Below are positions 1,225 through 64,000 of a stretch of 64,000 nt of DNA, piece after piece. The notes beneath the pieces are model-generated. The model saw only the letters and a list, made by a program, of their open reading frames with translations. It searched no databases and was not told where the DNA came from. Position numbers and translations under genes: made by a program. Positions within the stretch are counted from its first letter, which is position 1, and every line of letters begins with the position of its first letter. The stretch comes from an uncultured delta proteobacterium (GTDB lineage: Bacteria > Myxococcota_A > Polyangia > Polyangiales > Polyangiaceae): positions 110,277-174,276 of the forward strand of contig CAVQUB010000004.1 in assembly GCA_963716725.1 (NCBI GenBank). Direction: 5' to 3'.

Positions 1225-2508
1225 ATGCACGCTCTCTCTTCGGTCTCCGATCGCGAGCTTCGCGAGCGCCTCTCCTCCGCCGTGAGCGCCGAGCAGCTGG
1301 CTTCTGCCGACGTCATCTTCCACCTGGCGGAGCTCGACCGCCGAAAGCTCTACCTCGAGGACGCCTGCTCCTCACTCTTCGCGTACTGCGTGGAGCGGCT
1401 CGGCTACTCCGAGGACGGCGCGAGCAAGCGAGTCCGTGTCGCCCGCTTGGTTCTGCGTTTTCCCCAGGCCCTCGACGAGCTCGCGAGCGGCGCCATCCAC
1501 CTGACCGGACTGTTCCTGCTCTCCGGGCACCTCACGGAAGACAACGCCGATCGACTCATCGCCGAGGCTCGCGGCAAGTCGAAGCGGCAGCTCGAGGAGC
1601 TGCTCGCTCGGTGGGCGCCCCGGTCCGACGTACCGGCGACCATCACCCCGAGCGGGCCCGAGCCAGCTCGAGCGGAGTTATCAACAATGTCCGGGACAGG
1701 TGGCTCCGAGCTGTCGGCGCCGCCGCCATCGGCGCACCGTCCTCGTGTCGAGCCGCTCTCGGCCACGAGCTTCCGCGTGGAATTCACCGCCAGTGCCACG
1801 CTCCGCGACAAGCTCGAACACGCCCGGAACCTCCTCAGCCACGCCGTGCCGAGCGGGGATCTCGCGACCCTGATCGAGCGAGCCATCGATCAGCTCATCG
1901 CCGTGGAGACGAAGCGCCGCGCGGGCGCGGGCCAGCCACGCAAGCGCCGTGAACCTCGCGCCGGCTCGCGCCACGTGCCGGTGGAGGTCCAGCGCGCGGT
2001 GCGGGAGCGGGATGGCAACCAGTGCACCTTCGTCGATGCCGAGGGACGCCGCTGCTCCGAGAATAGACCGTCCGGCCGGGCCGGAGGAGCGCCGTCCGCT
2101 GATGCGAACAGTCGCAAGGAGCCATCTCGAGTCAGGACGCTGAACACGAGTGGTTTCCTGACCATCGAGCACGTCGACCCGTACGCGATGGGAGGACCAA
2201 CGACAGTGGATAACTGCTGCTTGCTTTGTTCGGCTCACAACGCCCACCGGGCGCGACAGGTCTACGGCGAGCAGCACGTCCGGAAGAAGGTCTCGGAGGC
2301 TCGCGCGGGCCGGGAAGCGCGCGGTGTGTCTGCGGGGACTGCGGCCGAGCTGAAGAGCGAAGTGTTCGAGAAGGTGCTGGCGGCTCTGCTTCACTCGGGG
2401 TTCAAGCGGCACGAGGCGCGGCGAGCCCTCGAACAGGTGCGCTCGCTCGGAGTCGAGCCGCAGCTCGAGCCAGTGCTGCGCGGAGCGCTGGCGGTACTCA
2501 CTCCCTGA
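1225..2508 (+). CDS. HNH endonuclease with DUF222-like N-terminus, RHH-like middle and RuvA-C-terminal-like domain (copy 1)
   Basis: CTF..RRC, LTIEH..P...GG.T..DN...LCSAHN HNH motif; C-terminal VLAALLHSGFKRHEARRALEQV..LEPVLRGALAVL; start chosen by alignment to the paralog at 48122. Confidence 0.85.
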   Translation: MHALSSVSDRELRERLSSAVSAEQLASADVIFHLAELDRRKLYLEDACSSLFAYCVERLGYSEDGASKRVRVARLVLRFPQALDELASGAIHLTGLFLLSGHLTEDNADRLIAEARGKSKRQLEELLARWAPRSDVPATITPSGPEPARAELSTMSGTGGSELSAPPPSAHRPRVEPLSATSFRVEFTASATLRDKLEHARNLLSHAVPSGDLATLIERAIDQLIAVETKRRAGAGQPRKRREPRAGSRHVPVEVQRAVRERDGNQCTFVDAEGRRCSENRPSGRAGGAPSADANSRKEPSRVRTLNTSGFLTIEHVDPYAMGGPTTVDNCCLLCSAHNAHRARQVYGEQHVRKKVSEARAGREARGVSAGTAAELKSEVFEKVLAALLHSGFKRHEARRALEQVRSLGVEPQLEPVLRGALAVLTP

Positions 2509-46256: not shown

Positions 46257-46479
46257 ACCACGAGCTTGCCGCCGATCCACCACGAGCTTGCCGCCGATCC
46301 ACCACGAGCTTGCCGCCGATCCACCACGAGCTTGCCGCCGATCCACCACGAGCCTGCCGCCGATCCACCACGAGCTTGCCGCCGATCCACCATGAGCTTG
46401 CCCGCCGATCCACCACGAGCTTGCCCGCCGATCCACCACGAGCTTGCCCGCCGATCCACCATGAGCTTGCCGCCGATCC
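46257..46479 (+). repeat. 10 x 22/23-bp tandem array (ACCAYGAGCTTGCC(C)GCCGATCC)
   Basis: Counted directly: seven 22-bp and three 23-bp units, no spacers. Confidence 0.95.
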
Positions 46480-47009: not shown

Positions 47010-47016
47010 GGCGCGC

Positions 47017-47100
47017 CGCCGAGCGGGCAACCGCCGAACGGGCAACCGCCGAGCGGGCAACGGCCGAGCGGGCAACCCCCGAGCGGGCAACCCCCGAGCG
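47017..47100 (+). repeat. About 5.6 x 15-bp tandem repeat (CGCCGAGCGGGCAAC)
   Basis: Directly visible. Confidence 0.9.
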
Positions 47101-47349
47101 TAGTCTTGCTCGGTAGTCGGGCCGGACGCGCGCAAGAAGCGACGCGTTCACGATCACTTACGACTGCGGCGACGGCGCTCGTCCCGCACGCACAATTTCG
47201 CAGGCCTACTTCCGGAATGCCCCCCCGCCGGCGCCGCAGCCCTGAGGGGCCTCGAGCGGAGCCCTTCCCAAGCGTTCGGCGTCGGTTCGGTGCGGCAGGC
47301 GGAAATGGAGCACGGTCGGTGGCACCCGCGCACCGAGGACGCGCTTCGT

Positions 47350-47646
47350 GACGACCCTTGGAAGTCCCTGGCGAGGGACGACCCTTGGAAGTCCCTGGCG
47401 AGGGACGACCCTTGGAAGTCCCTGGCGAGGGACGACCCTTGGAAGTCCCTGGCGAGGGACGACCCTTGGAAGTCCCTGGCGAGGGGCGACCCTTGGAAGT
47501 CCCTGGCGAGGGACGACCCTTGGAAGTCCCTGGCGAGGGGCGACCCTTGGAAGTCCCTGGCGAGGGACGACCCTTGGAAGTCCCTGGCGAGGGGCGACCC
47601 TTGGACGACCCCGGGAAGTACCCGGAGGGGCAAGTCCCCGACGGGG
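47350..47646 (+). repeat. E1 array: 9 x 27-bp units plus a 54-bp structured tail
   Basis: G[A/G]CGACCCTTGGAAGTCCCTGGCGAGG x9; total 297 bp = 11 x 27. Confidence 0.95.
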
Positions 47647-47802
47647 GACACTCGAAGGGGTGAAACGAGCGCTCTCTACTTCGAGGTCCGGCCCTGCGCG
47701 CCCGCGGCCCGGCGCGGAGCATCGCGGAAGCCGCGCCTGCGCGTGATGTCGACGAGCGCAGGCAGGAACCGGAAACCTTCGCTTCACGTGCGCGCTGCCA
47801 CA

Positions 47803-47880
47803 CCCGCGACGCTGCCGCTGCCAAGCCCACCAACGGCAATCCGTGCACGACCCGTTTGTCAGGGGGTGTGCAAGCACCGT
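47803..47880 (-). repeat. ~78-bp element homologous to 2510-2586
   Basis: Manual alignment; ends in GGGGGTGTGCAAGCACCGT, also seen at 970-988. Confidence 0.7.
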
Positions 47881-48525
47881 GGTTCTGGCGCACGCTTCAG
47901 CCGGCTGCGAATCGAAAAGAACGCATCTCGTACGATTTCGACACGTTTCTCGACGCACGACGCACGCGAGTGACGCGTCGTTCGAAACTTGCCGCGTGCG
48001 AGCGCGAGGACGATCCACGACGGCGCTCTGGCTCCCGGATGACTTTCGACGCGTCGAGCTGCGCGTTCGTTGCTCTCGGTGGCAGCTGCGAGGCCGAAAA
48101 TCCTCGTGGTATGCCGGAGACATGTTCGCGCTCGACGCTCTCGAGAACCAGGCTCTCCTCGCGCGTTTGCCCAGCCTTCGGGCTCTCGAACGCGAAGCCA
48201 CCGCCGAGCTCATCGCGTACCTCTGCGAGCTCGACCGCCGCCGCTTGTACACAGCGGTGGCTTGCTCGTCGCTCTCCTCGTATTGCACCGAGCGGCTCGG
48301 CTACTCCGAGAACGAGGCCCAGGTGCGGGTCGGGGTCGCTCGACTTTGCCAGCGTCTGCCCCAGGCCCTCGACGAGCTCCGGAGCGGGCGAATCCACCTG
48401 ACCGGCCTGTTCCTCCTGTCGGGGCGGCTGACCTCGGAGAACGCCGATGCCCTGCTCGCCGAAGCTCGGGGCAAGTCTCGGCGTGACCTCGAGTGTTTGC
48501 TGGCCCGCTGGTTCCACCCCTTCGG

Positions 48526-49992
48526 CTCATGATCAAACACATCTCATTGCGAGCGGACGGCGCGTGTGATCTACGGGAGAAATGCCGGCAACAGAATGGT
48601 TAGGGCGGTCGATTTCGGACGAGTTCGAGGGCTCTCAGCTCGGCGATAAGCGGCGCAGTGACAGGCTCGGTTGGCTCGCTGAGAAACTGATGGCGGCGCC
48701 CGGTGTTGGGTTTCCGCAGGCTGTCGACACTCCGTCCGAGCTTGAGGGAGTCTACCGATTCCTGCGCAACGAGCAGTTCGACGCGGAGCAGATCCTCGAC
48801 CCGCACCTGTCGGCGACGGTGGAGCGTGTGAGTTCCGCTGGCCTGTGTATCGTCGCGCACGATACGACCGAAGTATCGCTCGGCGGCGCCAGTCGGCGAG
48901 CTGGGTTGGGCGTCACGTCCGGCGGCAGCCAGGGGTTTCTCGCACACGTGGCGCTGGCCGTGCTTCCCGGCGAGGAGCGAGTGCCACTCGGAGTTCTGGG
49001 TCTACAGCGACACGTCCGCCTCGTACACAAGGGTGGACGCGGGCGCCGCCGGTCTGTCAGTCGGAGAGACCCCGAGCGCGAATCACTGCGCTGGCCGGCC
49101 ATGCTCGAGGCCGTCCATGCACGCTGCCCCGGCAGCGCGCTCATTCACGTGATGGACCGCGAAGCGGACATTTTCGAGGTCCTGGCGAAGGCGCAGGAAC
49201 TCGGTGCGCGCTACGTCATCCGTTCGGCTCACGACCGAGTAACTGAGGAAATAGGCATCTGCTTGCGCAGTGCAATCTCAACGCTCGAACCGCAGTTTTT
49301 TCGCACGATCTCGGTGTCATCGAGGAAACCGAGCAGTCGCGCGCATGCTGCAAAAGAGCACCCGTCTCGCAACGCCCGGAGCGCGGAGGTCGCCGTGGCA
49401 GGCAAACGTTTGACTGTGCTGCGCCCCCGCAACACTCGACATGAGACGCGCAGCATCGAACTCAACGTGGTTCGAGTCTGGGAACTCCAACCACCAGAAG
49501 GCGAGCCGTCGGTCGAGTGGGTGCTGCTCACTACCGAACCCATTGACACCGTCGCCGAACTCGCGACCGTCGTGGACTGTTACCGCAGTCGGTGGGTGAT
49601 CGAAGAGTTCTTCAAGGCACTCAAGCAAGGGTGTTCTCTCGAGAAACGACAGCTCGAGTCGTATCAGGCACTGAGCAACGCGCTCGCCGTGTTCCTGCCC
49701 ATCGCCTGGCGCCTGTTGCTCATGCGCTCGTTAGCCCGCGTCGCACCCGAGCAACCGGCAACAACGATCCTGAGTGAGCCCCAGTTGCTCCTCATAAAGT
49801 TCAAGCTCCGCCTCCCGGCCGTCCCGCAGACCATTGAGCAAGCGCTATTCGCTGTCGCGCGACTCGGCGGGCATCTGAAGAACAACGGCGCACCCGGGTG
49901 GCAAACGTTAGGACGGGGCTACCAGAAGCTCCTCGACTACGAGATCGGCTTCCGAGCTGCCCGGTCCCAGATGGGATCCGATCAATCATGAG
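48526..49992 (+). mobile_element. Complete IS4-family element, 1467 bp, 8-bp TSD CCCTTCGG
   Basis: Ends CTCATGAT...ATCATGAG; CCCTTCGG at 48518-48525 and 49993-50000. Confidence 0.95.
48582..49991 (+). CDS. IS4-family transposase (IS50/Tn5-like)
   Basis: LGDKRR, YRFLRN, HDTT, MDREAD, YRSRWVIEEFFKALK. Confidence 0.95.
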   Translation: MPATEWLGRSISDEFEGSQLGDKRRSDRLGWLAEKLMAAPGVGFPQAVDTPSELEGVYRFLRNEQFDAEQILDPHLSATVERVSSAGLCIVAHDTTEVSLGGASRRAGLGVTSGGSQGFLAHVALAVLPGEERVPLGVLGLQRHVRLVHKGGRGRRRSVSRRDPERESLRWPAMLEAVHARCPGSALIHVMDREADIFEVLAKAQELGARYVIRSAHDRVTEEIGICLRSAISTLEPQFFRTISVSSRKPSSRAHAAKEHPSRNARSAEVAVAGKRLTVLRPRNTRHETRSIELNVVRVWELQPPEGEPSVEWVLLTTEPIDTVAELATVVDCYRSRWVIEEFFKALKQGCSLEKRQLESYQALSNALAVFLPIAWRLLLMRSLARVAPEQPATTILSEPQLLLIKFKLRLPAVPQTIEQALFAVARLGGHLKNNGAPGWQTLGRGYQKLLDYEIGFRAARSQMGSDQS

Positions 49993-51017
49993 CCCTTCGG
50001 GTGTCACGAAGCGCGTCCAAGGTCGGACGTGCTGCCGAGCGTGACGCCCTTGCCCGGCTGCCCGGCGACCATGCTCGAGCATGGTCCTTCCGCCGCGGCG
50101 CCCGCCGCGTGCACGGAGCCCGAGCCCGCGCCGGCTCCGAAGCCCCGCGTGCAGCCGCTCTCCGCCTCCAGCTACCGGGTCGAATTCACCGCGAGCGCCG
50201 CGCTCCACGACAAGCTCGTGAAGGCCCAGAACCTCCTGGGCCACGCCATCCCCAGCGGGGATCTCGCCGCGCTGTTCGAGCGCGCCATCGAGGCGCTGCT
50301 CGAGGCCGAGACGAAGCGCCGCTTCGGCGCGGGCAAGCCGCGTAAGCGGCGCGCGCTCGAGCCAGGCTCACGGCACATCCCCGTGGAGGTCGCTCGCGTC
50401 GTCTGGGAGCGGGACGGCGGGCAGTGCACTTACCTCGACGACGAGGGGCGGCGCTGCTCGGAGCAGCGCTTCGTCACCCTCGAGCACATCGAGCCGCACG
50501 CGCTCGGCGGTCCGGCCACCGTGGAGAACCTCTGTCTCCTTTGTTCATCGCACAATGCCCTGCGCGCACGACAGGTCTTCGGCGAAGATCAGATCCGGAA
50601 GAAGATCGCTGAAGCGACCGAGAAGAAGCAAGGTCCGGACACGCCGAGGGACGACCCTTGGAAGTCCCTGGCGAGGGGCGACCCTTGGACGACCCTGGGA
50701 AGTGCCCGGAGGGGCAAGTCCCAGAAGTGGGACGAGAGCTCAGAGAAGATCCAGGCCGCGCTGGTACGACTCGGCTTTCGCACGGCGAAGGCTCGCCGCG
50801 CGGTCGAGCAAGCGCGCGCTCGAGGCGTCGAGCCCGGGCTCGAGCCGCTCCTCAGGGCGGCGCTCGCCGAGCTCACCCCCACCGTGTCGCCTGCGCGCTG
50901 CTGAGGGAGCGCGGGTGTCCCCGGAGCCCCTGGTGCAGGCGAAGACCCGACTCGCCGGCGCGGCCTCCCCGACATCGGGCCGTAACAGAAAGGTGCCGGC
51001 GCCAAGAGCGTTACCCG

Positions 51018-51480
51018 CAGACCGTGGTGCGCGTCAAGACGGTGGTCACCGACGAGGCGGGGCGTGTCCTCAGGGCTGAAGACCGCTACCTGATCTCGAG
51101 CCTGCGCAAAGATGCCCTCACCGCGACGCAATGGCAGACGCTCGTGCGCTTGCGCTGGGGCGTGGAAACCAACCACCAGATCCTCGACCACGCCTTAGAT
51201 CATCGACCACGCCTTCGAAGAGGACGACCCTTGGGAGTCCCTGGCGAGGGGCGATCACCCCTGGATCGAGCAGAACCCACGCGGCATGCTCGTCGTCGCG
51301 ATCCTGCGCCGCATCGTCTACACGCTGCTCGCGCTCTTCCGCGGCGTTGCGCAGCGCTCCGACGAGCGGCGCGGCGTCCCTTGGAAGCGCCTGCTCGAAG
51401 AGGTGTACCTCGCGCTGCTCCGCGTCACGGACGAGCTGCTCCGCAGTTTGCGCTTCCGCTCGTTGCCACTCCTGTCGTGA
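51018..51480 (+). pseudogene. ISAs1-family transposase C-terminal remnant
   Basis: RYLISSL, R.RWGVE..HQILD..FEED; broken by a 19-bp tandem duplication (51178-51215); carries an E1 insert. Confidence 0.75.
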
Positions 51481-53288: not shown

Positions 53289-55775
53289 GTGATGGGGAGT
53301 GTGCGGCAGGCTGAAGGCGAGGGACCTCGCGATCCCTTTGCGGTCGGGCAGATCGTCGACGGCCGCTATCGCATCAGCCGCAGGCTGGCCGCGGGCGGCG
53401 TCGGCGTCGTGTACGAAGCCGAGCACTCTTTCACGCGGATGAGGGTCGCGCTCAAGGCCCTGCACAACCGAGCCGGCGATCACCCGGAGCGCATGCAGGC
53501 CGAGGCGCGGACGCTCGCGGAGATGCGTCACCCGAACATCGTGCAGGTGACGGACGGTGGCGTCAGCGACGGCGTGGTCTGGTTCACCATGGAGCTGCTG
53601 CAGGGATCTGCGCTGCGGGAGCTGCTGCACCGCGAGCGAGCGCTCGACCTGCAGCGCGCGCTCTGGTTTGCGCGACAGATCGCCGAGGGCGTGGCGTCAG
53701 CCCATGACCAGGACGTGGTGCACCGCGACCTCAAGCCCGAGAACGTATTCGTCCTGCGCGACGACAGCATCAAGGTCTTGGATTTCGGAACCAGCAAGAT
53801 CACCAACAAGCTCGGTCGATCCGCCGCGCTGAAGACCACGGATCGCTTCCGCCTGATCGGCACCCAAGCGTACATGCCCCCAGAGCGGCTCAAGGCCGAG
53901 CGAGCCGACGCTCGCGCCGACGTGTATGCGCTCGGTCACATCATGTACGAGATGATCGCGGGCCGTCACTGCTGGAGCGACGGTCCAGGTCCGCTCGACC
54001 TGCCCGAGGCCATCGAGCTTGGCATGCGGCAAATCTACGCGCCGCCCGCGCCGCTCGTGGACCAGGTGCCCGGCCTGCCCATCGAGATCGATCGCATGGT
54101 GCAGCGCGCCCTGGCCAAGGATCCGCGGCAGCGCCAGCAGACCATGCGCGAGCTCAGCGTCGAGATCGAGGGCGCCCTCGCGCGCTGTCGTGCGGCACCT
54201 CCGATCGCTCGCCCGGCCTTCGGCCCCAGGGGCGCAGCCTCGGTGGCCACTGACACCGAAGAGACGATGGTGCCGTTCAGCTCGCCGGTCTCGGCGCTGC
54301 AACCGGTCTCGGCGCTGCAACCGGTCTCGGCGCTGCAACCGGTCTCGGCGCTGCAACCGGTCTCGGCGCTGCAACCGGTCTCGGCGCTGCAACCGGTCTC
54401 GGCGCTGCAACCGGTCTCGGCGCTGCAACCGGTCTCGGCGCTGCAGCCGGTCTCATCGAAGCCCGTCGCAGGCATCGACGCGGCGCTGCTGTGTGGCGCC
54501 CTACGATTCGTGAGCGCATCGCCCGAGGCGACGGCGGTCGAACTGGGGTTCATCGCGGTGGCCCAGGCGGACAGTGATCCGACGCTCTGCAGGGAGATCA
54601 CGCGGGCCTGCGCCCAGGGCGATGACCGATCGCGAGGGCCGCTGCGCACCGCGCTCGCGCGCATCGGAGCCGAGCCGCCGGAGGCGCGAGCCCGTCTGAT
54701 CGATCGGCTGCGCGCGTCGGTGTCGAGGGCTGCGCCCTCGGCGAGCCGGGCGAACCAGCCCCGCAGGTCCCGGGCGGAGCTCGCGCTCGGGGCGGCGCTG
54801 CTGCTCGATCCGAGCGCCCGATCGGACGCCGCCGAGTCGGCGCTCAACCGGCTGGGCATTGCGGATCCCGACGTCCAGGCCTTGGCGCTCTCGATCATGA
54901 TCGCGTTCGCGCGCACGCCGCTACCGATGCACCCGGCTCCGCGCGGCGCGCTGCTCGCGCTGTTGCTCGGGGGCGCTGAGGACTCCGAGCTCGCGCGGGC
55001 CGAGCTCGCGACCTTCGTGCTCGACGCGGCGTCGCTCCAAGATCACCTGCCCGCGTCTGCCGCGCCTGCCGCGCCTGCCGCGCCTGCGCAATGGTCGGGT
55101 GAGCAAGCGCGATCCTCGGCCGCACCCGCGCGATCCTCATTTCTGCCGGGCCTGGTCGCGCCTGTCGTGCCCGTCACGGTCGAGCGTGCCCCGGCGCGAC
55201 GGGCCGCGCTGCCGGTGCCCGCGCATGCTGTCGCGGCAGCCTCCACACCCTCGGGTGTTGCGAGTCCGCGACCGTCGAGTTCGCAAGCGCCCGCCACAGC
55301 ACCCGCGGCACTTGCTGCTGCTCCTGCTCCTGCTCCTGCTCCTGCCCCGGTGCGGCTCGGTTGGGTGGTGGCCATCGCCGCGATTTCGGCGGGGGCGGTG
55401 TTGGCCACGGGCGCTCTCGTGCGATCGCGAAGTGGGAGCGGTGACGCGAACGCGCCCGAGATCGGGCCGACGGCGCCGCCTGAGAACAAGGCCGCGCCCA
55501 CGAACGCGACCACGACCCCAGCCACGAACGCGAACACGACCCCGACCGCGACCCCGACCCCGACCCCAGCCGCGACCACGACCTCAACCGGGACCGGGAT
55601 TGCGACGGCGACCCCGATCCGGGCCACGGGCCAACCCCCGTCCACAGCGGCCGGCCCGCCGTCCGCGACCGCGAAGCCCGCAGGTGGTCCGCCGTCGACC
55701 GCGAAGCCCGGGCCCGCGACACCGCCGCACCCCACGCCTCCAGCTCCCCACAAACTCCCTGGATCTGGTCTCTGA
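53289..55775 (+). CDS. Membrane Ser/Thr protein kinase with helical insert; ends LPGSGL
   Basis: VALK, HRDLKPEN, DFG, GTQAYMPPE; TM; Thr/Pro-rich tail. Confidence 0.93.
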   Translation: MMGSVRQAEGEGPRDPFAVGQIVDGRYRISRRLAAGGVGVVYEAEHSFTRMRVALKALHNRAGDHPERMQAEARTLAEMRHPNIVQVTDGGVSDGVVWFTMELLQGSALRELLHRERALDLQRALWFARQIAEGVASAHDQDVVHRDLKPENVFVLRDDSIKVLDFGTSKITNKLGRSAALKTTDRFRLIGTQAYMPPERLKAERADARADVYALGHIMYEMIAGRHCWSDGPGPLDLPEAIELGMRQIYAPPAPLVDQVPGLPIEIDRMVQRALAKDPRQRQQTMRELSVEIEGALARCRAAPPIARPAFGPRGAASVATDTEETMVPFSSPVSALQPVSALQPVSALQPVSALQPVSALQPVSALQPVSALQPVSALQPVSALQPVSSKPVAGIDAALLCGALRFVSASPEATAVELGFIAVAQADSDPTLCREITRACAQGDDRSRGPLRTALARIGAEPPEARARLIDRLRASVSRAAPSASRANQPRRSRAELALGAALLLDPSARSDAAESALNRLGIADPDVQALALSIMIAFARTPLPMHPAPRGALLALLLGGAEDSELARAELATFVLDAASLQDHLPASAAPAAPAAPAQWSGEQARSSAAPARSSFLPGLVAPVVPVTVERAPARRAALPVPAHAVAAASTPSGVASPRPSSSQAPATAPAALAAAPAPAPAPAPVRLGWVVAIAAISAGAVLATGALVRSRSGSGDANAPEIGPTAPPENKAAPTNATTTPATNANTTPTATPTPTPAATTTSTGTGIATATPIRATGQPPSTAAGPPSATAKPAGGPPSTAKPGPATPPHPTPPAPHKLPGSGL
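54285..54446 (+). repeat. 9 x 18-bp coding repeat (PVSALQ)
   Basis: CCGGTCTCGGCGCTGCAA counted directly. Confidence 0.95.
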
Positions 55776-59370: not shown

Positions 59371-61061
59371 ATGCGAGGGCGTGGTGAAGTGACGGTGCAG
59401 GCCCCTCCCGTGGCCGCCGCGAGCGCGACGCGCGTCGCGATGCACGCAGGGGCAGAGCGCGAGCGCGACGCGCTTCGCGATGCCCGAAGGGGCGGACACC
59501 GGGGAGGGGCAGCGCGCAGAGCCGCCTGCAAGGCGGCGAGCACGCTGGGGGTGGGCATCATCGCCTGCTGCTTCGTTGCGTGCTCGGGCGATGACTTCGA
59601 GCCCTCGGGCACCGGTGGCACGGGCAACACCGGCGGCAGCGGCGGCAGCGGTGGCGTGAGCGGCAGCGGCGGCGCATCGGGCAGCGGTGGCACGTCGGGC
59701 AGCGGCGGCGCGTCGGGCAGCGGTGGCGCGTCGGGCGGCGGCGGCACGGGCGGAGACGCGGCGAGCTGCGATCCGACGAAGAGCCCGAGCGAGGAGGCGT
59801 GTCTGGTGAGCGACTCGTACGCGGTGTTCGTTGACGGGACCGCGGCCACGACGGGCACGGGCAGCAAGGCGTCGCCGTACAAGACGATCGGGGAGGCGCT
59901 GCTGCAGAAGAGCGGCAAGCTGATCTTGGTGTGCAACGCGACCTACGACGAGCAGGTCAAGATCACCGCGGGCGTGAAGGTGCACGGCGGGCTGTCGTGC
60001 GCGGACTGGTCGTACGAGGCGGGCAAGCGGGCGGTGGTGAAGCGCACGGCGAAGGGCAGCGCGCTCGAGGTGGAGTCGGTCACCGCGGCGGTGCTGATCG
60101 AGGACATCGAGTTTGCGTCAGCGGACGGCGCGGCGGCGGGTGAGAGCAGCGTGGCAGCGATCGTGAACGCTTCCAGCGACGTGAAGCTGCGGCGGGTGAA
60201 GCTCGCGGCGGGCAAGGGCGTGGCGGGAGCGAACGGCGCGCTGGCGCCGTACACGTATCCCACGCAGGTGGCGTTGAACGGCAATGGAGCGAGTGGGGGC
60301 AGCGGGGGTGCGCCCAAGGCGTGCGCGTGCCCGAGCGGTGCGGGCAGCACGGGTGGGATCGGGGGAGGCGCGCCTGGCCCGCAGGGCGGCGGCCCCGGGC
60401 AGCCCGCGCTCGGCGGGGGCGCAGGGGGCATTGCAGGGCAGGTGTGCGCGGGCGTGGGCTCGGGAGCAAACGGCGCATCGGCCTCCTCCCCCACCGACGG
60501 CCTCGGCGCCGCGTCGACGGGCACCCTCACCGCCACCACGTGGCAGCCCGCCTCCGGCAAGGCCGGAGCCGCGGGCGGACCGGGACAAGGTGGCGGCGGA
60601 GGAGCGTCGACGACGACGGCGGGCGGCGGCGGCGGGGGCTGCGGCGGCTGCGGCGGAGCGGCGGGTCCCGCGGGCGGCGGCGGGGGCGCGAGCCTCGCGC
60701 TCGTCGCGGTGGGCTCGACGGTGAGCATCGAAGGCAAGAGCGAGCTGACGACGAGCGACGCGGGCAACGGAGGCAGCGGCGTCGCGGGACAGGCGGGGCA
60801 GAGCGAGGTGGGGTTCGGGGGAAACCCGCGCCGGGCGCGTGCCCGGGCGGCAGTGGCGGTAACGGCAGCGCTGGCAGCGCTGGTGGCGGCGGCGCGGGCG
60901 GGGTGAGCGTTGCGGTGTTGTGGAAGGGCGCGGCGGCGCCAGTCGTCGACAGCGCGGCGACCGTCAAGCTGGGCAAGCTGGGCACCAAGGGCGTGGGCGG
61001 CAAGGCCGGCAGCAACGACGGCGTGGACGGCGCGTCCGACAAGACCCTCGAGGTGAAGTAG
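59371..61061 (+). CDS. PGRS-like lipoprotein, copy 2 (frameshift near 60830)
   Basis: Near-identical to copy 1 downstream of a different leader ending FVAC. Confidence 0.85.
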
Positions 61062-61063
61062 CG

Positions 61064-62757
61064 ATGCGAGGGCGTGGTGAAGTGACGGTGCAGGCCCCTC
61101 CCGTGGCCGCCGCGAGCGCGACGCGCGTCGCGATGCACGCAGGGGCAGAGCGCGAGCGCGACGCGCTTCGCGATGCCCGAAGGGGCGGACACCGGGGAGG
61201 GGCAGCGCGCAGAGCCGCCTGCAAGGCGGCGAGCACGCTGGGGGTGGGCATCATCGCCTGCTGCTTCGTTGCGTGCTCGGGCGATGACTTCGAGCCCTCG
61301 TACACCGGTGGCACGGGCAACACCGGCGGCAGCGGCGGCAGCGGTGGCGTGAGCGGCAGCGGCGGCGCATCGGGCAGCGGTGGCACGTCGGGCAGCGGCG
61401 GCGCGTCGGGCAGCGGTGGCGCGTCGGGCGGCGGCGGCACGGGCGGAGACGCGGCGAGCTGCAATCCAACGAAGAGCCCGAGCGAGGAGGCGTGTCTGGT
61501 GAGCGACTCGTACGCGGTGTTCGTTGACGGGACCGCGGCCACGACGGGCACGGGCAGCAAGGCGTCGCCGTACAAGACGATCGGGGAGGCGCTGCTGCAG
61601 AAGAGCGGCAAGCTGATCTTGGTGTGCAACGCGACCTACGACGAGCAGGTCAAGATCACCGCGGGCGTGAAGGTGCACGGCGGGCGGTCGTGCGCGGACT
61701 GGTCGTACGAGGCGGGCAAGCGGGCGGTGGTGAAGCGCACGGCGAAGGGCAGCGCGCTCGAGGTGGAGTCGGTCACCGCGGCGGTGCTGATCGAGGACAT
61801 CGAGTTTGCGTCAGCGGACGGCGCGGCGGCGGGTGAGAGCAGCGTGGCAGCGATCGTGAACGCTTCCAGCGACGTGAAGCTGCGGCGGGTGAAGCTCGCG
61901 GCGGGCAAGGGCGTGGCGGGAGCGAACGGCGCGCTGGCGCCGTACACGTATCCCACGCAGGTGGCGTTGAACGGCAATGGAGCGAGTGGGGGCAGCGGGG
62001 GTGCGCACCAAGGCGTGCGCGTGCCCGAGCGGGGCGGGCAGCACGGGTGGCGTGGGAGGAAGCGCGGCCGAACCAAGGGCGGCGGCTCCGGCCTGCCCGC
62101 GCTCGGCGGAGGCGCGGGGGGCCTGGCAGGGCAGGACTGCGGCTCGGGCGGCACGGGAGCGAACGGCGCCTCCGCCTCCTCCCTCGCCGACGGCCTCGGC
62201 GCGGCGTCGACCGGCACCCTCGCCGCGACCACGTGGCAGCCCGCCTCCGGCAAGGCCGGCGCCGCGGGCGGCCCGGGACAAGGTGGCGGCGGAGGAGCGT
62301 CGACGACGACGGCGGGCGGCGGCGGCGGGGGCTGCGGCGGCTGCGGCGGAGCGGCGGGTCCCGCGGGCGGCGGCGGGGGCGCGAGCCTCGCGCTCGTCGC
62401 GGTGGGCTCGACGGTGAGCATCGAAGGCAAGAGCGAGCTGACGACGAGCGACGCGGGCAACGGAGGCAGCGGCGTCGCGGGACAGGCGGGGCAGAGCGAG
62501 GTGGGGTTCGGGGGGCTTCAAGCGCGCCGGGCGCGTGCTCCGGTGGCAATGGCGGTAACGGCAGCGCTGGCAGCGCTGGTGGCGGGGGCGCGGGCGGGGT
62601 GAGCGTCGCGGTGGTGTGGAAGGGCGCGGCGGCGCCAGTCGTCGACAGCGCGGCGACCGTCACGCTCGGCAAGCTGGGCACCAAGGGCGTGGGCGGCAAG
62701 GCCGGCAGCAACGACGGCGTGGGCGGCGCGTCCGACAAGACGCTCGAGGTGAAGTAG
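61064..62757 (+). CDS. PGRS-like lipoprotein, copy 3 (indels near 62008, 62070 and 62525)
   Basis: Tandem copy; period 1693-1696 bp. Confidence 0.85.
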
Positions 62758-62759
62758 CG

Positions 62760-64000
62760 ATGCGAGGGCGTGGTGAAGTGACGGTGCAGGCCCCTCCCGT
62801 GGCCGCCGCGAGCGCGACGCGCGTCGCGATGCACGCAGGGGCAGAGCGCGAGCGCGACGCGCTTCGCGATGCCCGAAGGGGCGGACACCGGGGAGGGGCA
62901 GCGCGCAGAGCCGCCTGCAAGGCGGCGAGCACGCTGGGGGTGGGCATCATCGCCTGCTGCTTCGTTGCGTGCTCGGGCGATGGCTCGAGCCCTCGGGCAC
63001 CGGTGGCACGGGCAACACCGGCGGCAGCGGCGGCAGCGGTGGCGTGAGCGGCAGCGGCGGCGCATCGGGCAGCGGTGGCACGTCGGGCAGCGGCGGCGCG
63101 TCGGGCAGCGGTGGCGCGTCGGGCGGCGGCGGCACGGGCGGAGACGCGGCGAGCTGCAATCCGACGAAGAGCCCGAGCGAGGAGGCGTGTCTGGTGAGCG
63201 ACTCGTACGCGGTGTTCGTTGACGGGACCGCGGCCACGACGGGCACGGGCAGCAAGGCGTCGCCGTACAAGACGATCGGGGAGGCGCTGCTGCAGAAGAG
63301 CGGCAAGCTGATCTTGGTGTGCAACGCGACCTACGACGAGCAGGTCAGATCACCGCGGGCGTGAAGGTGCACGGCGGGCGGTCGTGCGCGGACTGGTCGT
63401 ACGAGGCGGGCAAGCGGGCGGTGGTGAAGCGCACGGCGAAGGGCAGCGCGCTCGAGGTGGAGTCGGTCACCGCGGCGGTGCTGATCGAGGACATCGAGTT
63501 TGCGTCAGCGGACGGCGCGGCGGCGGGTGAGAGCAGCGTGGCAGCGATCGTGGACGCCCCAGCGACGTGAAGCTGCGGCGGGTGAGGCTCGCGGCGGGCA
63601 AGGGCGTGGCGGGAGCGAACGGCGCGCTGGCGCCGTACACGTATCCCACGCAGGTGGCGTTGAACGGCAATGGAGCGAGTGGGGGCAGCGGGGGTGCGCC
63701 CAAGGCGTGCGCGTGCCCGAGCGGTGCGGGCAGCACGGGTGGGGAATAGGGGGAGGCGCGCCTGGCCCGCAGGGCGGCGGCCCCGGGCAGCCCGCGCTCG
63801 GCGGGGGCGCAGGGGGCATTGCAGGGCAGGTGTGCGCGGGCGTGGGCTCGCGGAGCAAACGGCGCATCGGCCTCCTCCCCCACCGACGGCCTCGGCGCCG
63901 CGTCGACGGGCACCCTCACCGCCACCACGTGGCAGCCCGCCCTCCGGCAAGGCCGGAGCCGCGGGCGGACCGGGACAAGGTGGCGGCGGAGGAGCGTCGA
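62760..64000 (+). CDS. PGRS-like lipoprotein, copy 4 (partial, several indels)
   Basis: Tandem copy running off the window end. Confidence 0.8.

Follow-up and report, generated by a model that had tools for sequence, protein, structure and literature searches.

Transposition of hairpin DNA in single-stranded form is an established chemistry in the REP/RAYT and IS200/IS605 systems. Rickettsia palindromic elements (RPEs), reportedly described by Ogata et al. in 2000, are said to lie in frame in protein-coding genes; they measure ~100–150 bp, and their host is an obligate intracellular bacterium with AT-rich DNA. Insertion sequences (ISs) that target REPs include elements of the IS3 and IS110 families. 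Targeting of REPs by ISs has been described by Tobes and Pareja 2006 (PMC1525189) and for ISPpu9 (PMC8450116). For the GTAG REPs, movement is modelled as the action of a hairpin-recognising Y1 enzyme that leaves no target duplication (PMC3116915, PMC3333891). The CGTC-tagged REPs of Di Nocera, De Gregorio and Rocco 2013, a paper that also mentions RPEs, are described there as having stems of 8–9 bp that start with two A-T pairs, a tag beside the stem and a CCA tail, and as forming mostly head-to-head dimers (PMC3733652). The CGTC-type REPs exemplify an open problem, that of small hairpin repeats for which no transposase is known, and the family described here, E2, offers unusually clean material for work on it.

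E2 was recognised in a window of 64,000 nt, the whole stretch of DNA that was analysed (G000:C4:110277–174276), which belongs to a Polyangiaceae-like, myxobacterial draft genome of 7.89 Mb and 67.8% G+C in 35 contigs. The E2 consensus, GACGCGCTTCGYGAYACCCGAAGGGGT, is exactly 27 nt long, and its natural register, GACG...GGGT, lies one base to the left of the one used in the original prediction, in which a hairpin element was proposed to be split by an array of a second element, E1. E1 has the same length of 27 nt, a GACG start and, at its other end, a hairpin of C-arm and G-arm, GTCCCT-GGCG-AGGGAC; 71 matches with at most 4 mismatches are found in G000. The two elements are laid out alike, with 12 nt of GACG head before 15 nt of hairpin module, and nesting takes place at the 12|15 junction; this shared architecture would fit one common mobilisation mechanism. 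We are confident that E2 is a real mobile element of 27 nt. The explanation that accounts for most of the data, and which we consider probable on balance, is that E2 is a non-autonomous micro-transposon that has E1 as its sister, hosts nested copies at its junction and serves as a landing site for an IS. E2 consists of the 12-nt head GACGCGCTTCGY and the 15-nt module, which folds into a short G+C hairpin, and it inserts as an exact 27-nt piece next to a G, in intergenic and coding DNA alike. Copies within genes would survive as loops of 9 aa, because the unit is nine codons long and its C-variant is free of stops in every frame.

As portrayed in PMC3733652, the CGTC-tagged REPs share with E2 a dispersed short hairpin, an unpaired tag, a 4-nt loop, intragenic as well as intergenic locations and no dedicated transposase found beside the repeat. 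In our alignment of E2 the start, (G)ACGCGC, is invariant (ACG in columns 6–8 without exception, G5 in at least 90% of rows), so that the reverse complement of E2 ends in CGTC, as does that of E1 with its GACG start; the tag that defines the class is thus present in E2 (PMC3733652). However, the E2 stem consists of 4–5 G+C-rich bp, there is no CCA tail, and the GNNG loop fits the published description in length alone (PMC3733652). The E2 tag moreover lies 11 nt from the stem instead of beside it, the intervening bases can fold into a second small hairpin in the C-variant, and inverted pairs are lacking. None of the three myxobacterial names that were tried occurs in the main text of the CGTC-REP paper (PMC3733652). 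The GTAG REPs and REPINs that depend on RAYTs are, like E2, small non-autonomous hairpin DNAs with lineage-specific expansions (PMC3116915, PMC3333891). E2 differs from them in having no GTAG tag on either strand, neither REPIN-type inverted doublets nor an E2-flanked RAYT, and ~55 copies instead of hundreds (PMC3116915, PMC3333891). Unlike MITEs, E2 is not associated with target duplications of more than 1 nt, its two termini, GACG... and ...GGGT, do not form an inverted repeat, and the ends of the IS4 and IS91-like elements in the genome differ from it. The likeness to RPEs lies in copies that sit in frame in coding genes, add extra loops and are absent from orthologs (four genes and the HNH paralogs), but E2 is set apart by description, being 27 nt long, G+C-rich and nested with a sister element at a fixed junction. 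The original prediction of a nested family of REP-like micro-elements stands as far as E1 and E2 are dispersed, nested and REP-like, and a shared mechanism fits though it is still inferred, whereas membership in the REPs proper does not stand: E2 behaves like REP/RPE selfish DNA yet fails membership of the GTAG-REP/RAYT, CGTC-REP, MITE and RPE classes. No title or abstract among those listed by a literature search reports an element of this kind in myxobacteria, and as far as such searches show, neither the E2 family nor its 12+15 plan nor its targeting of the junction has been described before. The assets of E2 are its exact unit length, filled and empty pairs in single-copy genes, a fixed self-targeting junction, close species with 0 to 25 copies and an IS that reads the same hairpin; together this material defines substrates and targets for a transposition assay and permits a phyletic search for the missing enzyme.

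The exact length of the insertion is best seen at orthologous loci, which were taken from six species of the same genus. At four coding loci E2 forms a clean 27-nt insertion with no other repeat nearby, and the 27 nt are absent from all aligned orthologs: 6/6 for a CBM9-like protein (C9:158870), 2/2 for an RCC1-like protein (C13:133771), 5/5 for a DinG-like helicase (C34:47108) and 3/3 for an ACT-domain region (C5:94757), for which two of the five loci gave no match. An intergenic copy (C2:326272) is missing in the four aligned orthologs, with gaps there of 28 or 16 nt, and the comparison at C8:20267 involves a low-complexity acidic repeat, for which three of five loci had no match and two aligned poorly. 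No target duplication of more than 1 nt is visible at the filled/empty pairs. The base before E2 is always G, so the ends of the element can slide by one, and no target motif emerged beyond this flanking G. Among 14 E2 copies on loci of three sister species (G003, G005 and G006), 10 had no match in G000. The predicted 9-aa inserts are borne out, with empty sites in orthologs as well as paralogs. Selfish DNA of this kind can decorate proteins with 9-aa loops, including the DinG-like helicase, the RCC1-like and CBM9-like proteins and transposases, and such units give annotators an explanation for many of the odd in-frame indels and tandem 'protein repeats' of myxobacterial genomes with high G+C.

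Genome-wide, the hairpin pattern of the original prediction has 18 matches, which is above the chance expectation; three of them lie in the window (59470, 61163 and 62859), where 0.00 are expected and none of 100 shuffles contained a match. Searching G000 with the 27-mer at up to 5 mismatches yielded 55 copies, compared with 0 for the reversed consensus. A head-only search with 1 mismatch proved too noisy (160 matches vs 103 for the reversed control), and the 63 exact heads were used instead. When grouped by their 20-nt flanks, the 55 copies fall into 36 clusters, 27 of which are singletons; the others have 8, 4, 3, 3, 2, 2, 2, 2 and 2 members. Larger repeats, among them the end of an 8-member repeat, the HNH elements and a tandem gene unit, carry 19 of the 55 copies, so there have been fewer transposition events than there are copies. 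The tandem gene unit lies in the window: E2 variants with a GCCC/GGGC stem occur on the plus strand in the PGRS leaders at 59467–59493, 61160–61186 and 62856–62882, each with a degenerate partner 40 nt upstream (59427–59453, 61120–61146 and 62816–62842). The three copies announced there are exact matches, but they represent a single insertion carried in a tandemly duplicated 1.69-kb unit and count as one locus. Carriage of this kind raises the alternative that E2 is passive throughout and owes its spread to gene conversion or to the movement of its carriers (HNH elements, IS91-like elements, tandem gene duplications and a repeat end of ~130 bp). The 19 copies on repeats, the multi-member flank clusters, the duplicated PGRS leaders and the split window copy, which sits in a segment common to a paralog on contig C6, all agree with it; the 27 singleton clusters do not, and neither do the four single-copy, housekeeping-type genes with their clean inserts. 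We regard passive spread as quite unlikely, and for singleton copies in coding sequences it is largely refuted.

The split copy itself occupies 47338–47661 of the plus strand. Its 12-nt head, GACGCGCTTCGT (47338–47349), is followed by nine tandem E1 units of 27 nt, GACGACCCTTGGAAGTCCCTGGCGAGG, with GAC/GGC variants (47350–47592, identified by TRF). By reading of the sequence, a tenth unit (47593–47603 and 47631–47646) is in turn split by a nested E1-type unit 11 (47604–47630), all on the plus strand, and this layout of 47593–47646 recurs at 50677–50730. The 15-nt hairpin module, GACACTCGAAGGGGT (47647–47661), is supported by covariation and has a T·G pair in its stem. Hence the insert between head and module measures 297 nt, or 11 × 27 nt of E1 (47350–47646), within which TRF reports a period of 27, 9.5 copies and 97% matches (47350–47605). 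Removal of the E1 block does restore E2, as had been stated, from 47339–47352 and 47650–47662 in the earlier register, around 297 nt. The composite is borne by a 529-bp accessory segment (47193–47721, plus strand) in the leader of an HNH element, present in the window copy and on C6, reduced to a remnant on C11 and missing from two paralogs on C15. No coding signal was found in this segment by GC3. An ORF at 47290–47973, in which the array reads as DDPWKSLAR repeats, was rejected as spurious because its flanks lack coding GC3 and Pfam returned nothing above cut-off. The surroundings of the HNH element and the DNA downstream contain other perfect tandem arrays, at 46257–46479 (22 nt × 10), 47016–47100 (15 nt × 5.7) and 54285–54454 (18 nt × 9.4); their sequences are unrelated to E1 and E2.

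The interruption of E2 after its head is not peculiar to the window, since an E2 head directly followed by an E1-type unit occurs at 16 loci genome-wide. The junction inserts measure 27 nt at 10 loci, 35 nt at one, 108 nt (4 × 27) in the C6 paralog and 297 nt in the window, and three of the 16 nested loci have a variant tail. Several E1 subtypes are involved and most flanks differ, so that either the junction after position 12 is a repeated target or 54-nt composites move as units. This 12|15 junction is also the one used where an E1-type unit lies within another E1 unit (47593–47646 and 50677–50730). In the preferred explanation, E1-type units would insert by preference between the head and the hairpin of resident E2 (and E1) copies, an insertion of this kind would have produced the split E2 copy of the window, and the nine-unit run would then most likely have grown by slippage or unequal exchange. 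Seven copies from a second group of HNH elements have 1 to 7 E1 units at one homologous spot of the leader, and long E1 runs in HNH leaders look like a VNTR that changes by slippage. The array of E1 that precedes the HNH gene is also a trait of these multicopy elements and not solely the outcome of a chance landing on E2. The C-terminal part of HNH copy 2 contains three further E1-type units in frame (50650–50730, plus strand), one unit preceding another that is split by a nested unit (50688–50714); the paralog on C11 has a single unit at the same place. Another single unit is found at 51223–51249 on the plus strand.

Forward E1 units in ORFs are all read in one frame, GAC GAC CCT TGG AAG, or DDPWK; examples are the window units at 50650 and 51223 and, elsewhere in G000, those at C5:21048, C12:55491/55605 and C34:85537, among others. 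No stops occur in the other two frames either; the shared frame may stem from a preference for targets with a G in the first position of a codon, and the independent events are few, ~6–7.

Which part of E2 forms the hairpin was decided by covariation, in an alignment with one copy per flank cluster (n=35, the IS-truncated cluster having been dropped). In the 3' hairpin YNCCC-GNNG-GGGNR (columns 19–23 with 28–32), 92.6% of cells are paired (shuffled mean 85.7%, reached by 0/500 shuffles), 13 cells have changed on both sides (0/500) and the covariation score is 0.344 vs 0.215 in shuffles (0/500), figures that have to be read with the caveat that the aligned copies are interrelated and were chosen by similarity to the consensus, both of which inflate such tests. 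One position has the pair types AU/GC/CG and another has CG/UA, and sliding the register lowered the score in every case. T·G intermediates of the stem, ACTC...GGGT, are seen in four aligned copies as well as in the E2 copy of the window. The stem originally proposed, CTTCG-N7-CGAAG, behaves differently: 87.4% of its cells are paired, a single cell is compensatory (reached by 356/500 shuffles), and its score of 0.068 equals what shuffling gives (0.069). It had been called invariant, which is true of the window copies only, and genome-wide CGACG, CGGAG and CTGCG break it without compensation; lacking covariation, it was dropped in favour of the 3' hairpin. DNA folding returned the 3' hairpin in every copy tried and added a small CGCG-CTT-CGCG hairpin in the C-variant, with unremarkable energies (z about −0.9).

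A hairpin that is kept with compensatory changes could also be a functional cis element under selection, acting as a small terminator, as a site to which a protein binds or as an RNA hairpin with a regulatory role, which the IS merely prefers. By a crude GC3 test most copies are intergenic (7/53 flagged as coding, 46/53 not), which suits such a role, but the coding count is a lower bound, since C5:94757 was missed in spite of being coding according to its orthologs. E1 junctions also mimic the core of the guanidine-II riboswitch: units join to form GGGACGACCC hairpins (window 47397–47439, also 47451–47601 and 50643–50685), and two neighbouring junctions (GGGACGACCC twice) make up the match to RF01068, whose best score on the array, 30.4 bits, lies below the gathering score of 32, other pairs reaching 20.9–24. 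The gene downstream of the array belongs to the HNH element and no guanidine-related gene was found there, and the similarity is probably mimicry of a very small model. A cis-acting function is at odds with E2 copies that lie in coding sequences in both orientations and several frames, with the empty orthologous sites in sister species, with copy numbers from 0 to 25 among congeners, and with E2 neighbours that have no gene class in common. We therefore consider it very unlikely.

The second E2 copy of the window lies on the minus strand inside HNH copy 2 (47843–50904; copy 1 is the ORF at 955–2508). Its 3' part (48516–48525) is found to the left of an IS and its 5' part, the head side (50001–50017), to the right of the IS and its duplication, with one mismatch relative to the first copy, which agrees with the reverse-complement E2 that had been reported there. 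The predicted insert of 9 aa is likewise real: across the IS, HNH copy 2 reads LLARWF-HPFG / PFGCHEAR-PRSDV where copy 1 has LLARWAPRSDV, a net gain of 9 aa. This coding-sequence site is filled in the window copy and on C6 and empty in both C15 paralogs; the C6 paralog alone has a further 27-nt E2 variant in its HNH leader. A metagenome contig that differs from 47647–50120 at 1 position in 226 nt on one side and at 2 in 100 nt on the other joins 48514 to 50021 via four other letters, and thus represents an HNH copy in which neither E2 nor the IS is present.

The IS is an IS4-family element of 1467 bp (48526–49992, plus strand) with a transposase ORF at 48582–49991 (NF033590, E 6e-88), and its 8-bp target duplication, CCCTTCGG (48518–48525 and 49993–50000), covers the stem and loop of the hairpin. 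BLAST with the IS gave 10 matches, 7 of full length and 3 partial, all 10 of which adjoin a motif of C-arm, TTCG-like loop and G-arm; six of these sit within recognisable E2 copies and a seventh within a variant that resembles E2. Among the full copies, five are bordered by perfect direct duplications of 8 bp and a sixth by one with a single mismatch, whereas the flanks of a copy on C10 are inverted, as if two copies had recombined. Loose ends of the IS in contigs from other metagenome studies again have E2-like flanks. The E2 hairpin would accordingly be read as the specific landing site of this element. Landing of an IS in a repeat hairpin, 10/10 here, resembles what is described for REP-targeting ISs (PMC1525189, PMC8450116). 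The IS of the window is of the IS4/Tn5-like family and its 8-bp duplication spans stem and loop, both of which set it apart from the IS3- and IS110-family examples. Through its hairpins, E2 makes landing pads for ISs, and genes are disrupted as a result, HNH copy 2 being an example.

Some E2 copies outside the window have the 8 nt duplicated by the IS present twice with no IS between them, as CCGAAGGG CCGAAGGG or CCGACGGG CCGACGGG (C6:144360–144400, C6:95110, C13:329258, C13:26591 and C21:258059 of G000). These doubled sites look like footprints of IS excision; in the C6 HNH paralog the doubled 8 nt shift the frame.

Across genomes, E2 is restricted to one genus and, by recent lineage-specific spread, expanded in some of its species only. 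The exact pattern occurs 15 times in G000, 25 in G006, 3 in G005 and once in G003; no match was found in G001, G002 and G004 or in 34 genomes of other genera of the family and order, and the backward control had 0 matches in all 41 genomes searched. G002 has more diverged E2 look-alikes. Heads of E1 number 56 in G000, 11 in G002, 7 in G006, 4 in G001, 2 each in G005 and G003 and 0 in G004.

This distribution was compared with that of candidate enzymes. The sole clear Y1_Tnp gene (C5:165574–165909, 74 bits) is flanked by different hairpins of its own, which are found nowhere else, and no Y1 match was found in G006, the genome richest in E2, which is 73% complete. A RAYT link was rejected, as no RAYT is flanked by the element. 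IS91-like Y2 genes and the HNH family, the latter in many copies, are found in each of the seven congeners regardless of how many E2 copies it has, and their distribution is therefore uninformative on the enzyme; IS91-like ends were rejected as a source of E2, being unlike it. A gene between inverted E2 copies in G006 (L114) was also discarded, its ORFs containing nothing recognisable by eye. By analogy with REP/RAYT and IS200/IS605 chemistry the likeliest agent is in our view a tyrosine transposase of the HUH type that handles single-stranded hairpin DNA and acts in trans, with the Y1 gene and the multicopy IS91-like Y2 as candidates, a proposal that we put forward only tentatively. E2 shows no strand bias relative to GC skew (13/36; 67/135), a bias that is reported for some ssDNA transposons. 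None of the 55 copies in G000 has an inverted E2 neighbour within 300 bp, and just 3 close pairs were found, all direct and from one duplicated locus.

Myxobacteria are rich in retrons, and E2 could alternatively be copied and patched in, either by reverse transcription of a small structured RNA or by templated break-repair synthesis from resident copies. The lack of a target duplication and of a link to a transposase would follow, T·G stem intermediates would be tolerated in RNA, and the unit length is fixed across several subfamilies; the strict 12|15 insertion point, on the other hand, suits site recognition by a protein more than random break repair, and we hold this route to be unlikely. 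A further reading, which we find rather doubtful, takes E1, E2 and their relatives for an undescribed class of micro-transposons, stop-poor modules of 27 nt, or nine codons, that move with neither a RAYT nor a target duplication, build nested stacks by targeting the junction of resident copies, and have a length and composition tuned to be harmless in a mostly coding genome. The machinery would then be one so far not connected with such repeats, possibly the multicopy DUF222-like/HNH elements, whose leaders always have E1 arrays, or an E-decorated IS91-like Y2.

One such IS91-like Y2 ORF of 569 aa (L137, G000 C12:54402–56111) contains at least 5 in-frame 27-nt E units in both orientations, with peptides that include DPWKSPTG, DPWKSQKW and TPSGVTQRV, and is still open. 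It has paralogs on C5 and C13, and most of its IS91-like relatives measure 517–527 aa.

The DUF222-like/HNH gene is a multicopy element that resembles the REP13E12-type repeats of mycobacteria. Its loci number at least 14 (955–2508 and 47843–50904 in the window and 12 others in G000) and form two groups. The closest named relatives of the HNH protein come from Polyangiaceae MAGs. Every copy of the element has a conserved leader. Group-B copies have an inverted terminal similarity of ~78 bp, in which 47803–47880 matches, inverted, the DNA just past the stop codon. HNH copy 1 and other group-B genes have ~29 extra residues in the HNH motif region (RCSE…FLTIEH; window 2240–2330) compared with copy 2, and at this insert tblastn splits the matches and reads through one TGA.
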